Source of the DNA: a virus
Taxonomy: Duplodnaviria > Heunggongvirae > Uroviricota > Caudoviricetes
IMG/VR virus record: IMGVR_UViG_2693429662_000008
Length of the DNA: 40,489 bases
Reading direction: 5' to 3' (one strand)
This document shows, in pieces, positions 11,605-25,147 of the stretch. Made by a program: the position numbers and the translations under genes. The notes below the pieces were generated by a model that was given only the letters and a program-made list of their open reading frames with translations, ran no database searches and was not told the DNA's origin. The first letter of the stretch is position 1. Each line of letters begins with the position of its first letter.

Positions 11605-11952
11605 TCAACTCACAGGAATAGTCAGTGACAGGGTTTTGCCGGTGTCCCGGGCCTCGCCGGTCAGCTCAACAATCATCTGACCGTTAAACTGACGCTCGAC
11701 CGTCAGCGAGCTGATGCTGATGCGCGGCTCCCACTTCAGCAGCGCCATATAACAGGCGCACATAATTTGCAGCCTCAGCGCGTCGGTCTGCGGCATATCA
11801 ATCAGGGAGAACAGTAGCGAGCCATAATCGCGGCGCATCACGCGAGATCCAACCGGCGTTCGCAAAATATCGCCACAGCTCTGACGGATGTGATCGGCGT
11901 CAGTGATAGCTCGCCCTGTCTCGCGATTCATGCCGATATATCGGGTTGTCAT
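11605..11952 (-). CDS. W: Baseplate wedge protein W (P2 gpW, gp25-like)
   Basis: 115 aa, same length and position as P2 gpW. Confidence 0.85.
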   Translation of the reverse strand: MTTRYIGMNRETGRAITDADHIRQSCGDILRTPVGSRVMRRDYGSLLFSLIDMPQTDALRLQIMCACYMALLKWEPRISISSLTVERQFNGQMIVELTGEARDTGKTLSLTIPVS

Positions 11953-12590
11953 TTCGTCCCCTCCGTCCAGGCTCCACCTCTTTGCACACCGCCGTGACCG
12001 TGGTCATCCACCACCACGCCATTTGATGAGAGTTTGCCGCCGGTGTGCTCGATATCGCCGCTCATCTTCCCGCCTTTGGTGACCTCGAGCGTGGCGGTCG
12101 TCAGTTTGTTGGTGCAGACAACTTCCGGGGTATCAAGGGTGATGCGGGTCTCGGCTTTCACCGTCACCAGCGGTACCGTCGCGATGATGGAATCCGACGC
12201 CGTAACGTCTGCGGTTTTAATACCGCTCACGGTCAGCGCGCTGGTCTCCGGCTCGTACTCGATAACAGCCCCGTCAGGAAAGGTGATGTGAAAAGCATCA
12301 GCCGACACCGACGGCGCGGGGTGTTCATCCGAAAAAATGCCGGGTAGCACAAAAGCCGTGTCCAGCTCACCACCGACGGCCAGCAGTAAAACCTGCTCAC
12401 CCACAGACGGAGCCCACCAGACACGTGAGCGACCGGCGCGCGCAGTCAGCCACTGAAGCCAGTCGGTAACAATGCCGCCAGTCTGGACGCGACAGCGCCC
12501 GTCATCGAGGCCAACCTCGACAATAACGCCGGTTCGGATCAGATTGCGAAGGAGGCGCTGAATGTCCTGAAGAGTGGATTGTGTTTTCAT
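11949..12590 (-). CDS. V: Baseplate spike/assembly protein V (P2 gpV)
   Basis: 213 aa, MKTQSTLQDIQRLLRNL N-terminus; overlaps the W start. Confidence 0.9.
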   Translation of the reverse strand: MKTQSTLQDIQRLLRNLIRTGVIVEVGLDDGRCRVQTGGIVTDWLQWLTARAGRSRVWWAPSVGEQVLLLAVGGELDTAFVLPGIFSDEHPAPSVSADAFHITFPDGAVIEYEPETSALTVSGIKTADVTASDSIIATVPLVTVKAETRITLDTPEVVCTNKLTTATLEVTKGGKMSGDIEHTGGKLSSNGVVVDDHGHGGVQRGGAWTEGTK

Positions 12591-12675
12591 GCTGGGAAGG
12601 ATGAAGGAAAAACACCTTCAATGTAATTGAGCGGTGTTGTATGCTTTTTAGTACAACTTCAAGAGGATAACCAAA

Positions 12676-13389
12676 TTGGATAACAAGGAATATCAGAGGC
12701 ACTTTGGAATAATAACTGATGAATTACAAAAGCCTTCCGATAAACATTTGAGAGCATTTACGCAGGTTGCTGACATTAGAAAGTTTGAAATTGAGATGTA
12801 TTGGAAAAGAGCTACGTATTTCTGGACCATTATTGCTATTACTTTTACTGGTTATTTTGCTTTAGCCTCCGCAAATAGCTTTCCGTTCAAAAATGCATTT
12901 TCTCTTTTGCTTTCCAGTATGGGATCCGTTTTTACTCTTTCATGGTTTTTGGTAAACAGAGGTAGCAAATACTGGCAGGAAAACTGGGAAAATCACTTAG
13001 ACCTGATGGAAAACGGCATAACTGGGCCGCTCTATAAAACTGTACTCTCACGACCGTCAGTCGAAGCCAAAAAAAACGCACCTCAACTTGCGAGTACTGA
13101 TAAAGATTTTATCGACAAACATATCACCGGCCCCAAAAAAATATCAGCATCCAAAATTAACCAATTAGTTGCATTTTACTTGCTTGGCATATGGTTAATA
13201 TTAGTAATGACAACAATTACTAACATCTTAAAACTATCATTCTGGAGTGAATCCACGATAGAAGTAGTGTTGAGCGTGGGAGTTTTAATTTGGTCAGCAA
13301 TAGCCACTAGTTTAATGTTTTGTAAGTCAGCCACCTATACAGGAATACAGACTTCAGAGGCAAGAAAACGCTCTTCGAATTTGTTATAA
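12676..13389 (+). CDS. Cargo gene: predicted 4-TM inner-membrane protein of unknown function (possible abortive-infection or exclusion effector)
   Basis: 237 aa from a TTG start preceded by AAGAGGA. Four hydrophobic segments (about residues 50-68, 75-92, 164-185, 197-215) and a charged N-terminal region. AT-rich, opposite strand to the late operon, sits in the S-V moron slot. Confidence 0.7.
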   Translation: MDNKEYQRHFGIITDELQKPSDKHLRAFTQVADIRKFEIEMYWKRATYFWTIIAITFTGYFALASANSFPFKNAFSLLLSSMGSVFTLSWFLVNRGSKYWQENWENHLDLMENGITGPLYKTVLSRPSVEAKKNAPQLASTDKDFIDKHITGPKKISASKINQLVAFYLLGIWLILVMTTITNILKLSFWSESTIEVVLSVGVLIWSAIATSLMFCKSATYTGIQTSEARKRSSNLL

Positions 13390-13502
13390 CGTTGGTGATA
13401 CACTAATAAATTCATTTAAAGCCCTCAGTTTTGGGGGCATGTAATCTCTACTTTCTCACGGAAAGAGAGTCCAGGATGTACACCAGCGCTTGACGCGGAA
13501 AG

Positions 13503-13600
13503 CTAGTCACTGGTGGCAATACTGCGGGTGCGACATAGACTACGCAGGAAGCGCACAATATCCGGAAAGTAGGTTGTGTTTTCGTGTGGGAAAGGATGCC
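13503..13600 (-). pseudogene. Relic of a second gene V 5' end (degenerate duplicate of the V start region)
   Basis: Minus-strand sequence CATCCTTTCCCACACGAAAACACAACCTACTTTCCGGATATTGTGCGC aligns with the real V start CATCCTTCCCAGCATGAAAACACAATCCACTCTTCAGGACATTCAGCGC. ATG is mutated to ACG and there is a frameshift; similarity continues for roughly 90 nt by eye. Confidence 0.45.
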
Positions 13601-13657
13601 GCCTTAGAAGATCGGCGGCAATAGAGGTATGCAGTTCTATCTCTGGTAAAATTTTGT

Positions 13658-14734
13658 TTATTTTCGTTTGCCATAAGACTGGGTTAGAATTGGAGTAATA
13701 TCCTTAGTAAAGATATCTAGTCTTTCTTTTTCGGCTGAGAAAACATACTGTCTGGCTTGAATTACATTTTGCCTACTAATTAAGTTTGACACCTTTTCTG
13801 GTTTGCTTAGTGCAACTTTGGCACCCTTGAATATCAACGCTAAGCCCGGTGATATTGTAAAAATACATCCATTATCAAATGAAAAATCATTTTTTAAGAA
13901 AATAAAAGGAAAATCACTTGAAACAATGGCATATCCCTTAGGTGCTGAGTACAAATATACCCTACAACTACTCTCATTGGTGATTGAGGAAAAAGGTAAC
14001 GCCATAAATCTATGCATCTTTCTAAGTAAGTAAAACATTTCCCTCCGCTGTCCGCTGTCCGCATTAACTAGATACGTTCCTCCCTCCTTTAGTATAGATA
14101 ACAAAGACCTCCATTCAGAACGTGGGATTATGCTCGCACCAGAAGGAATGAGATCCTTATTAGTATTCAGTACTTTCTTGATGGTGGTGTTTATATTTTT
14201 TAATTTTGGCATGGAGCCTTTATCAAAAAAATCATCCATACCTTTGTTTCTATAACATAAAAAACGGGCCATGAAAATTGCCATGTTTTTTAAATCGTTG
14301 AAATCAATCTCATGCAAACCACTACATACTATCGAACGTGCGAATTTTTTTTCCGAAAGCTTGCCAAGCAACCAGTGTCTACGCACGAAATAATGACTAC
14401 CTGAAGCATTTTTAAAATGCTCCTTTAATTTATAAAATTGCCACATTGCGTCTACAAAATCAGGGTAACAATCCTCTAGTATTTTAAAACTGTCCTCAAT
14501 AAAGTTATCTCTATCCCCATCAATATAAAGAGTATGCCTTCGCTCTTGACCACAAATTTTTGTGGCATTAAGAAAAGTAATCCTTTCTTTTATTTGCTTT
14601 TTGGTGGCATCTGTTTTCACAAAACCATAAACAGTATCTTTCCCAGTCTTTGGGTCTTCAGATGTTATTTTAAAATGCCTGATATAAGTTGCAGGCAGAT
14701 AATGCTGATAGTTTTGAAAAGTTCCCTTTGACAT
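13658..14734 (-). CDS. Cargo gene: DUF4238-like protein, candidate single-gene anti-phage defence protein
   Basis: 358 aa from the ATG at 14734 (GGAGG 5 nt upstream); the ORF track TTG at 14746 is an alternative. N-terminal motif HYLPATYIRHF resembles the conserved start of DUF4238 proteins as I recall them (not verified by HMM). AT-rich, and starts 13 nt after the gene S stop. Confidence 0.75.
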   Translation of the reverse strand: MSKGTFQNYQHYLPATYIRHFKITSEDPKTGKDTVYGFVKTDATKKQIKERITFLNATKICGQERRHTLYIDGDRDNFIEDSFKILEDCYPDFVDAMWQFYKLKEHFKNASGSHYFVRRHWLLGKLSEKKFARSIVCSGLHEIDFNDLKNMAIFMARFLCYRNKGMDDFFDKGSMPKLKNINTTIKKVLNTNKDLIPSGASIIPRSEWRSLLSILKEGGTYLVNADSGQRREMFYLLRKMHRFMALPFSSITNESSCRVYLYSAPKGYAIVSSDFPFIFLKNDFSFDNGCIFTISPGLALIFKGAKVALSKPEKVSNLISRQNVIQARQYVFSAEKERLDIFTKDITPILTQSYGKRK

Positions 14735-14747
14735 AGTAACCTCCAAT

Positions 14748-15200
14748 TTACCAAGTCATAATTTTTTTAATGATAATATATTCAACCTCTTCAGTTAAAT
14801 CATTATTGAAACCAATGAGTGGTCGAGTGGGGTATTCAATCCGTCTGCTGTTAATGTTTGGGGCATCCTTTAACCCGTACTGATGCACCTTAGCCATACG
14901 CTGTACCTTGCCGGTAAATTCCACGACCGCCGCGTTATTCCCCGCCGTGGCTTTCATAAAGCGACTGGTACGGAGTTTGGCGAACATTTCCCGCTTAACC
15001 CGGCCTTTTTTGGCTTTTACCGGCTGGCGTTTTCGGGCGGCGTAAGGTGTCCCGTCCGGGGCTTTCTGCGTTTTAATCCGGCGCTGTTGACGGGCTCGCA
15101 GGGTCTTCGCGATATCTGCGGCCATTCTGCGACGGGCGGCAGGTGACAGCGCCGCTATCAGCCCCGCGAGCTTATCGTCAAAGGGTTTAAAGTCATTCAT
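14748..15200 (-). CDS. S: Tail completion protein S (P2 gpS)
   Basis: 150 aa, same length as P2 gpS; the 3' end is AT-rich, suggesting the C-terminus was remodelled by the adjacent insertion. Confidence 0.85.
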   Translation of the reverse strand: MNDFKPFDDKLAGLIAALSPAARRRMAADIAKTLRARQQRRIKTQKAPDGTPYAARKRQPVKAKKGRVKREMFAKLRTSRFMKATAGNNAAVVEFTGKVQRMAKVHQYGLKDAPNINSRRIEYPTRPLIGFNNDLTEEVEYIIIKKIMTW

Positions 15201-23929: not shown

Positions 23930-25147
23930 TTAATTAGCTTTATCAAGGCGTCCCCCCACCACCATCCGCTTGTAATTTATTGCGAACAACTTAATTTTTT
24001 CAGGGAACTTTGACGCCAAAATTATTGACTTTCTGTCTACATATGAATAAAAGGGCATTGATATCAAAATAGTTATCATCGAAGTTAAGATAAATGTAAC
24101 AAACGCACCAACGGACGGCGACGCAATGTTTTTGTAAACCCAAAAACCAACTATAGATATAACAAATGGATGAAGCAAGTATATTGAAAATGACAACTTC
24201 CCAATAAACAAGACTACATTTTTGCTCATCCCCCTTAAACATCTCCCATTCACAAAGACAGAAGCAATAATCAAAAAAGAACCAAGCGATATTGTAAACT
24301 CTGGCCATTGTATTAATATACCGCATTGAAACTGAAGGTAGAGGTAAAATTCAACCAGATCTTTATACGCAGTGCTCGCCGGTGCATACCCAACAAGATA
24401 AAGGCCAATAAACAACATAAGAAGCGATACAAACTTTCTTAACCGTCCATTATTTTCACTTATCTCGAAAGTTGATAAAAACACACCAGAAAGGAAAAGC
24501 CCATAATAAATTACATTAATACTACCAGACAAAAACATGCAAACAAATGAAATAAACGACAACCAGCGAAGAATGGTCTTGTTCTCACCAAACAGAGATA
24601 TAAATCCGTATACCAATATAGAACCAAAAAACTCAATACTAATAGTCCACAGAACATAGTTATACTTTATATTACCAAAAAGCATAGCGCCAAATGAAGC
24701 ATCCCATATGGCTGACACTATATTCCCATCAAAACTAAACGCAGTCATTAACGGCATTGATGCAGCGGGGCTATCCTTATCCGGAAAAAAGCCCAACAAC
24801 ATTATAAAATAGCAAATAATCACAGATGCTGCTACGGGAACCCCAAGCCTAATGTATCTCTTCAATGCTGATGCTTGTATATAACGTATTTCGTTATTAT
24901 TTTTTTGGCAACTCAGTGACAAAACCAACCCGCTCAAAACAAAGAATAAGCTAACAGCAGATCCCCCCTTATAGAAAAAAGTAAAAGGGCTATTAAATAA
25001 ATTTTCTTGCCACTTGCTATCAAACATACTGCCAGAATGCACCGAAGGTATAAACATTAAAAATGAATGCGATAAAACGACAGCCATGGCTGCCACACCT
25101 CTTATCCCATCAAAGATTTTTACATTATTTCTCTCATTATCACTCAT
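23930..25147 (-). CDS. Cargo gene: membrane acyltransferase, acyltransferase-3 family (O-antigen/polysaccharide acetyltransferase-like; probable lysogenic conversion gene)
   Basis: 405 aa, about ten hydrophobic helices, N-terminal FDGIRGVAAMAVVLSHS motif typical of acyltransferase-3 (Oac-like) proteins. Strongly AT-rich; sits between cos and the replication region where P2 carries tin/old. Confidence 0.85.
   Translation of the reverse strand: MSDNERNNVKIFDGIRGVAAMAVVLSHSFLMFIPSVHSGSMFDSKWQENLFNSPFTFFYKGGSAVSLFFVLSGLVLSLSCQKNNNEIRYIQASALKRYIRLGVPVAASVIICYFIMLLGFFPDKDSPAASMPLMTAFSFDGNIVSAIWDASFGAMLFGNIKYNYVLWTISIEFFGSILVYGFISLFGENKTILRWLSFISFVCMFLSGSINVIYYGLFLSGVFLSTFEISENNGRLRKFVSLLMLFIGLYLVGYAPASTAYKDLVEFYLYLQFQCGILIQWPEFTISLGSFLIIASVFVNGRCLRGMSKNVVLFIGKLSFSIYLLHPFVISIVGFWVYKNIASPSVGAFVTFILTSMITILISMPFYSYVDRKSIILASKFPEKIKLFAINYKRMVVGGRLDKAN

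Follow-up and report, generated by a model that had tools for sequence, protein, structure and literature searches.

What is the function of a small membrane protein gene which lies in the tail gene region of a prophage and is read against the genes on both of its sides? This question is raised by a P2-like Escherichia coli prophage with its late genes on the minus strand, IMG/VR record IMGVR_UViG_2693429662_000008, whose complete stretch of 40,489 nucleotides (nt) was analysed here and is referred to as the window. The gene in question is the plus-strand coding sequence at 12676..13389, between genes V and S, which starts with TTG and specifies a protein of 237 amino acid residues. In our study, this gene has been found almost certainly to encode a member of the RipA/8xMP family (Pfam PF24838), a small inner-membrane protein, and it is a self-contained single-gene cargo at the position of orf30 of phage P2, read away from V. 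Its product may be an oligomeric membrane module which benefits the lysogen, most likely by protecting it against other phages; this is the function that we put first, with somewhat less than even confidence.

The Pfam profile PF24838, 'Octameric membrane protein family (8xMP)', was found to match the protein with 124.4 bits against a cut-off of 30 (E=3.6e-36), residues 26-181 covering profile positions 2-135 of 136, and the same profile was also matched by all 74 aligned homologues. An identical protein is present in RefSeq and UniRef, where it carries the name 'RipA family octameric membrane protein'. Moreover, the architecture of PF24838, with a cytoplasmic N-helix, a transmembrane (TM) hairpin, a conserved cytoplasmic domain and further TM sequence, was recovered by hydropathy, AlphaFold2 modelling and conservation analysis. 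A preliminary description of this DNA had regarded the protein as an orphan which could not be placed in a named family, and the homology results have overturned this view. The gene itself is not new, since Pfam has an entry for its family and RefSeq a product name.

On the strength of the profile match and of the 1,986 homologous clusters at 90% identity that were retrieved in a word-indexed protein search, the open reading frame (ORF) is a true gene and not a chance one. It is supported by the ORF list, Pfam, RefSeq, the alignment, the structural model and hydropathy, and the same boundaries are given in RefSeq for five complete E. coli genomes which share an identical 2.5-kb segment. The TTG start is invariant across five aligned related loci, in which GAGG or GGGG is also kept at the ribosome site; in the window, a Shine-Dalgarno sequence AAGAGGA can be read at 12661..12667 on the plus strand, 8 nt 5' of the TTG. 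Residues Y6 and F10, which are invariant in the 74 homologues, both precede M42, the sole internal methionine, and the TTG start is therefore well supported. The ORF, start codon and ribosome site as they had been described earlier are thus confirmed by the ORF list, the RefSeq boundaries and the TTG kept in five loci.

Kyte-Doolittle analysis has highlighted four hydrophobic segments, at about residues 46-65, 73-93, 164-184 and 197-217, so that the parts of the protein are, in order, an N-terminal cytoplasmic helix, a TM1-TM2 hairpin, a cytoplasmic loop of 70 residues (94-163) and a TM3-TM4 hairpin. The loop contains 11 lysine and arginine residues and the N-terminal 44 residues contain 8; in the hydropathy analysis both termini and the loop are rich in these residues and the periplasmic loops are short. 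Because of this enrichment, an N-in/C-in topology is predicted. The AlphaFold2 monomer model, for which the 74-sequence alignment was the input, was confident (predicted local distance difference test, pLDDT, 87.9; predicted template modelling score, pTM, 0.79) and placed long helices at residues 22-65, 72-115, 158-190 and 194-217, TM1 and TM2 being modelled as the membrane portions of two 44-residue helices which reach into the cytoplasm. A charged N-terminus, two TM helices, a hydrophilic loop of about 70 residues and two more TM helices had been proposed at the outset, and both hydropathy and AlphaFold2 agree with this arrangement.

Conservation among the 74 homologues peaks in the juxtamembrane N-helix (22-45), in TM1 and in the two halves of the loop (94-127 and 148-163); TM3, TM4 and the periplasmic loops are variable. 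Across the 74 sequences 45 columns are invariant, every one of them present in the window protein, and the invariant motifs, all of which it carries, include DIRKFEIxxYWKRAxYFW, NRGSKYWQENWENH, TGPLYKT and SxSKxNQ. As the cytoplasmic side is highly conserved, the working surface would face the cytoplasm, and TM1 and TM2 probably make up the core of an oligomer. Searches of the PDB by sequence, by profile and by fold gave no solved relative. The PDB matches obtained with the single protein and with the 74-sequence profile, to designed toroid repeats and a gp41 heptad (E 0.3), were judged spurious, and the sub-threshold Pfam matches among the relatives (DUF4131, DUF2207_C, Imm17, LptF_LptG and a holin model) look like the effect of TM-hairpin composition. 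The longer relatives have no recurrent fused domain; their extensions are heterogeneous and mutually unrelated, and many are apparently miscalled starts.

In published work, Francisella tularensis RipA (FTT0181c/FTL1914) is described as an inner-membrane homo-oligomer with two essential cytoplasmic domains, which co-precipitates with LpxA and whose deletion is suppressed by lpxA and glmU mutations; relatives are said there to be scattered in 'an eclectic group of organisms'. Through its naming the window protein is comparable to Francisella RipA, as both are small, lie in the inner membrane and have two cytoplasmic domains, one at the N-terminus and one between TM2 and TM3. What sets the window protein apart from Francisella RipA and from PF24838 are an additional, fourth TM helix and a loop lengthened by an insert of 20 residues. 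The cytoplasmic domains of Francisella RipA were reportedly placed by Mortensen and colleagues in 2012 at about residues 1-50 and 104-152, the latter between TM2 and TM3. A further difference lies in the genetic setting, since the window copy is carried as cargo by a prophage and does not belong to the conserved chromosomal genes of its species: the family is patchy within E. coli, with a member in only 6 of the 5,426 complete E. coli genomes.

The family is large and widely spread. An exhaustive profile search of 1.84 billion representatives has retrieved 2,842 clusters at 50% identity with E<=1e-3, and 2,010 with E<=1e-10. Relatives occur in Proteobacteria, Bacteroidota, Acidobacteriota, Cyanobacteria, Verrucomicrobiota, Planctomycetota and Firmicutes, the Firmicute members being chromosomal in Psychrobacillus, Paenisporosarcina and Neobacillus (E 7e-43 to 2e-39) and plasmid-borne in Bacillus thuringiensis. 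Among mobile elements, a member was found in 11 loci among the 2.9 million viral contigs of IMG/VR and in 7 of 72,556 plasmids; none was found in 50,697 sequenced phage genomes, and no viral predicted structure in BFVD was found to match.

The position of the gene is explained by the layout of P2. In the P2 record, the O late operon closes with S and a terminator after it, the next late operon opens with V, and the stretch from that terminator to the pV activator site holds orf30, a non-essential gene of the opposite strand. In the window, the slot is bounded by V (11949..12590, minus strand; ORF list and RefSeq), the baseplate spike gene which is the first of the V late operon, and by S (14748..15200, minus strand; ORF list, RefSeq and P2 record), the tail completion gene which is the last essential gene of the O late operon. 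As this layout puts the RipA-family gene at the orf30 position, it is not antisense within an operon; the earlier view that it is encoded antisense to the late operon holds in so far as it is on the opposite strand to V and S, but the gene lies between two operons. P2 Orf30 is a positional analogue only: it has the same slot, the opposite strand and a start 15-20 nt from the pV activator site, whereas the two proteins have no detectable similarity (BLASTP E=2.8), and no Pfam or PADLOC family was found for Orf30 itself. The orf30 region is said to have been noted as a variable site by Nilsson and colleagues in 2004.

Between the starts of V and of the RipA-family gene lies a divergent control region of 85 bp (12591..12675) with a mean column identity of 93% among relatives. 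It contains a TGT-N12-ACA dyad (12638..12655) which is, by its position match to P2, the putative Ogr-type activator site of the V late promoter. The dyad is centred 56.5 nt from the V ATG in the window and 55.5-56.5 nt from it in five P2-like loci of different clades (it lies at L087 1767-1784, L093 6944-6961, L095 6998-7015 and L102 4959-4976), and the pV activator site of the P2 record is centred 55.5 nt 5' of the V start codon, which is the transcription start. As the pattern by itself occurs in the window no more often than chance predicts (9 found against 9.1 expected), the dyad gains weight as an activator site only from its fixed position to V. The start codon of the RipA-family gene lies 20 nt past the dyad. 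A candidate weak sigma-70 promoter on the plus strand (12617..12645), with TTCAAT at 12617-12622 and TATGCT at 12640-12645 separated by 17 nt, agrees with 7 of 12 consensus positions, which is below the scan threshold, and its candidate -10 sits inside the dyad. Equivalent TTCAAT/TACAAC-N17-TATGAT/TATGCT sequences are present in L093 (Yersinia), L095 and L102 (Serratia). Because the only plausible -10 sits inside the dyad, it is suggested that the RipA-family gene could be expressed in the lysogen, as long as no late activator is present, and that the activator, on binding the dyad, would occlude this promoter once late transcription starts.

The same slot was found wherever closer relatives were looked up. 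All looked-up relatives of 47-84% identity occupy the gap between S and V in P2-like prophages and run opposite to the late genes, namely P0006 (84%; L087), P0007 (83%; L088-L090), P0016 (52%; L095), P0024 (51%; L093, a locus of very many Yersinia enterocolitica assemblies), P0017 (50%; L100) and P0019 (47%; L102, Serratia), and the IMG/VR contig L113 has the same arrangement. The remaining content of the slot varies. In L093, L095 and L102 the RipA-family gene is the only cargo, in L087 a Septu system stands beside it (PtuA E=5e-39, PtuB E=5.5e-26), and elsewhere it is accompanied by an unrelated 179-residue gene (L088-L090) or a 359-residue gene (L100). In the window, the S-V gap is filled by a low-GC cargo island of 2.15 kb (12604..14747; 33-47% guanine plus cytosine, GC, against 52-63% in the flanks by composition profile), which also holds a DUF4238-type gene. 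This swapping of defence cargo, Septu in one prophage and DUF4238 in another, suggests that the S-V slot behaves as a defence-cargo hotspot distinct from gpA-gpQ. Between L100 and L102, identity amounts to 92-98% for the J, W, S and R proteins and to 70% for V, but to only 54% for the RipA-family proteins, and an allele replacement at the slot is therefore indicated. In L100, the RipA-family gene adjoins S, and the other cargo lies between the gene and V.

The variable, low-GC nature of the slot and its Septu and DUF4238-type cargo are features of the P2/P4-like defence hotspots. For P2-like phages, the hotspot at gpA-gpQ has been described by Rousset et al. 2022 (PMC9122126), with a single-gene DUF4238 system there that protects against T7; on a term search 'orf30', 'gpS' and 'gpV' are absent from that paper. 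The S-V slot is a different locus, and the gpA-gpQ locus of the window holds an acyltransferase gene.

The gene is kept where the phage around it has decayed, and it is also found far from phages. Decayed remnants without structural genes retain it together with neighbouring cargo (L086 and L088-L090); L086 keeps only ogr, the RipA-family gene and Septu, and L088 has the gene between stubs of V and S. The Septu PtuA/PtuB genes are carried by a sister P2-like phage (L087 2891-4687) and a decayed remnant (L086 7086-8882) in Enterobacter. In Vibrio cholerae ATCC 14035, a family member forms a single superintegron cassette (L021 898-1847) between two Vibrio cholerae repeats (VCR) of a seven-repeat run, and the gene would therefore act on its own. 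Another member is next to type I restriction-modification and PrrC genes in a metagenomic contig, those of Klebsiella oxytoca and a marine E. coli lie in integrase- or AlpA-bearing islands, and HEPN, Abi_alpha, reverse-transcriptase and Hachiman neighbours are present at other family loci. Neighbour clustering by BLAST and phmmer in more than 70 loci has shown no conserved partner family near the gene, save among close taxa. In three Acidobacteria (Pyrinomonadaceae and relatives), the family member and the end of a ThiC-like gene touch or overlap, with zero gap and the same orientation (L058 5866-8717; L067 5851-8684; L071 6070-8684), so that a stable place in an operon is suggested for this lineage.

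A mechanism can be proposed from these features. The protein would form a homo-oligomeric ring in the inner membrane, following the oligomer of Francisella RipA, with TM1 and TM2 facing inward and the conserved cytoplasmic domain acting as its sensing or gating part. A conserved intracellular infection cue would then lead the ring to perturb the integrity or energisation of the membrane, in the manner of an abortive-infection (Abi) or exclusion effector with a built-in sensor. An anti-phage role is ranked first because the gene occurs on mobile elements and in an integron, has its alleles shuffled in a cargo hotspot, keeps company with defence genes and persists in remnants; a benefit to the lysogen and not to the virion is favoured because the gene is kept in decayed remnants and on plasmids and is absent from the sequenced phage genomes. 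Lambda RexB, a polytopic membrane protein which is expressed from the prophage and activated by RexA, offers a precedent, as it is likewise a small polytopic inner-membrane protein borne by a temperate phage outside the lytic operons, and a membrane-perturbing action is plausible for both. The window gene differs from RexB-type proteins in that it has no PADLOC match and no partner sensor gene.

A number of results weigh against an anti-phage role. None of the 5,027 defence-protein models of PADLOC-DB v2.0.0 matches the window protein at E<=1, and no match to it was found in NCBIfam or PHROGs. The cytoplasmic domain is unusually conserved across phyla, which is atypical of fast-evolving phage sensors, and the thiC-adjacent positions in Acidobacteria are apparently vertically stable. 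The defence genes near family members are plain sightings, and the short, variable periplasmic loops, set against the conserved cytoplasmic face, are unlike exclusion proteins which act at the periplasmic face. Regarding expression, the promoter scan gave no consensus sigma-70 site upstream of the gene, and the conservation of the upstream region is explicable by the V promoter alone. In the literature found, the sole experimental data under the RipA name concern envelope and LpxA biology in Francisella. The proposal of an exclusion or Abi effector in the preliminary description is thus borne out in part, by the opposite-strand cargo island, the defence company and the retention in remnants and on plasmids, and is weakened by the lack of a PADLOC match and by the variable periplasmic loops; homology to a membrane protein of unrelated role, which that description had named as speaking against it, is partly found in the envelope and LpxA link of Francisella RipA.

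The strongest competitor to an anti-phage module, which we consider unlikely, is that the protein is a modulator of envelope or lipid A homeostasis, the role put forward for Francisella RipA. Through its conserved cytoplasmic domains, the oligomer would bind a cytoplasmic enzyme of envelope biosynthesis such as LpxA and tune the synthesis of lipopolysaccharide (LPS) or of the membrane, and carriage of the gene would be a case of lysogenic conversion. P2 uses LPS as its receptor, and such a modulator could also alter the susceptibility to LPS-receptor phages. The family name ties the gene to Francisella RipA with its homo-oligomer, LpxA co-immunoprecipitation and lpxA/glmU suppression, the two conserved cytoplasmic regions, the second of them between TM2 and TM3, match in architecture, and a strongly conserved cytoplasmic face would fit the binding of a conserved host component. 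In addition, an Acyl_transf_3 gene, with a typical surface-conversion function, is present in the same prophage (23930-25147). The distribution of the family argues otherwise, since it has solid members in Firmicutes, hosts without LPS or LpxA, to which the LpxA link cannot apply; a mechanism specific to LpxA is therefore not general. A patchy, mobile-element-borne distribution is also unusual for a homeostasis factor, the Francisella link itself rests on database naming (RefSeq, UniRef), and no change of membrane or LPS composition was measured in Francisella.

Far less probable than either the anti-phage module or the envelope modulator is a two-gene system in which the neighbouring DUF4238 protein, taken to be soluble, would sense infection and the membrane protein would be the effector. 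The DUF4238-type cargo gene (13658..14746, minus strand; a 362-residue ORF, 358 residues in RefSeq) is convergent with the RipA-family gene and begins directly after the S stop; it is annotated as DUF4238 in two RefSeq genomes and as hypothetical in three. Its match to PF14022 covers the full-length profile at 27.7 bits against a cut-off of 27, that is, at threshold only, and no PADLOC match was found. DUF4238 proteins can be anti-phage, and the two genes travel together in a 2.45-kb block of about 87% nucleotide identity in four settings, which are the prophage, a Pantoea agglomerans island, a Klebsiella IncFIB plasmid and a Pantoea ananatis plasmid. This fragment corresponds to window 12424-14872, including stubs of V and S, and recurs on the plasmid of Klebsiella quasipneumoniae, on that of P. 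ananatis and beside mutS in P. agglomerans (copies at L002 7749-10201, L091 5749-8200 and L092 5748-8202). As its end points inside V and S are identical, the three transferred blocks are one copied phage fragment and not independent evidence of linkage.

The pairing dissolves beyond these copies, as DUF4238 accompanies the membrane gene only among copies that are at least 86% identical. The 83-84% relatives pair it with Septu or with the unrelated 179-residue gene, the 47-53% relatives are the sole cargo of their slots, and a tblastn search around 80 distant loci gave no DUF4238 at any of them; moreover, the DUF4238 system that has been validated consists of one gene only. The two genes of the window are convergent and split by a decayed duplicate of the V 5' end (13450..13598, minus strand), which lies 3' of the RipA-family gene and whose start codon is now ACG in place of ATG. 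The first ~100-150 nt of V have been duplicated here, as seen in the direct repeat D1 (12573-12603 against 13568-13598, 81% identity), and the same V-5' remnant is present in L087 (2620-2800). Since the RipA-family gene is bracketed by V-5' sequence, it would have entered the slot apart from the DUF4238 cargo, by recombination within V, and the decayed V copy between the two genes therefore speaks for separate insertion histories. Next to the start of the pseudo-V, just 3' of the DUF4238 stop (minus strand), a GC-rich inverted repeat TGCCGCC-N10-GGCGGCA occurs at 13597-13620, which may be the displaced terminator of the O operon. The terminator scan found no intrinsic terminator in the island, and this repeat, which lacks a T-run, was not called.

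The least probable explanation of all, a lytic-cycle membrane function expressed with the late genes, such as holin- or antiholin-like lysis timing or the passage of tail or DNA, would suit a small polytopic membrane protein encoded among tail and lysis genes and the weak sub-threshold holin-model matches of 7 of the 74 relatives (best E 0.003). Several results contradict this function. The gene runs opposite to both late operons, R and S stand between it and the lysis genes, and the slot that it fills is marked as non-essential in the P2 annotation. It has no PHROG match and no counterpart in the sequenced phages or the BFVD structures, it is also present in integron cassettes, on plasmids, in islands unrelated to phages and at stable places on chromosomes, and it is retained where structural genes have decayed.

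Other cargo and flanking genes of the window were also noted. The acyltransferase mentioned above (405 residues, minus strand) lies in the gpA-gpQ cargo locus beside a DinI pseudogene and is likely a surface-modifying conversion gene. A tRNA gene with a CAT anticodon (1575-1650; tRNA-Ile in RefSeq) adjoins the ogr end of the prophage, and an AIDA/pertactin autotransporter gene of 1,331 residues (36458-40453) is located beyond the integrase end.

This study has brought together a number of facts about the RipA/8xMP family which can be used to direct its functional analysis. Literature searches with the family names, the Pfam identifier and anti-phage terms gave nothing on the family besides the Francisella work, and an integron cassette screen preprint does not mention it. 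In these sources we have not found a description of divergent RipA-family alleles recurring in the orf30 slot of P2-like prophages of E. coli, Enterobacter, Serratia and Yersinia, where they share the slot with swapping defence cargo, nor of the lone Vibrio superintegron cassette or the islands beside restriction-modification and PrrC genes. A far-reaching extension, which has to be regarded as speculative and rather improbable, is that the whole family consists of mobile single-gene immunity or exclusion modules, oligomeric rings in the membrane whose conserved cytoplasmic domain senses a universal infection cue, that the P2-like copies have their promoter wired to the Ogr-dependent V promoter, being on in the lysogen and off late, and that Francisella RipA is a domesticated member whose envelope phenotypes are secondary. 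A phage-protection phenotype, if true, could give a function to about 2,800 protein clusters and could shed new light on Francisella RipA, a virulence factor that has lacked a clear mechanism since 2008; the S-V gap would then be a further cargo hotspot of P2-like phages beside gpA-gpQ.

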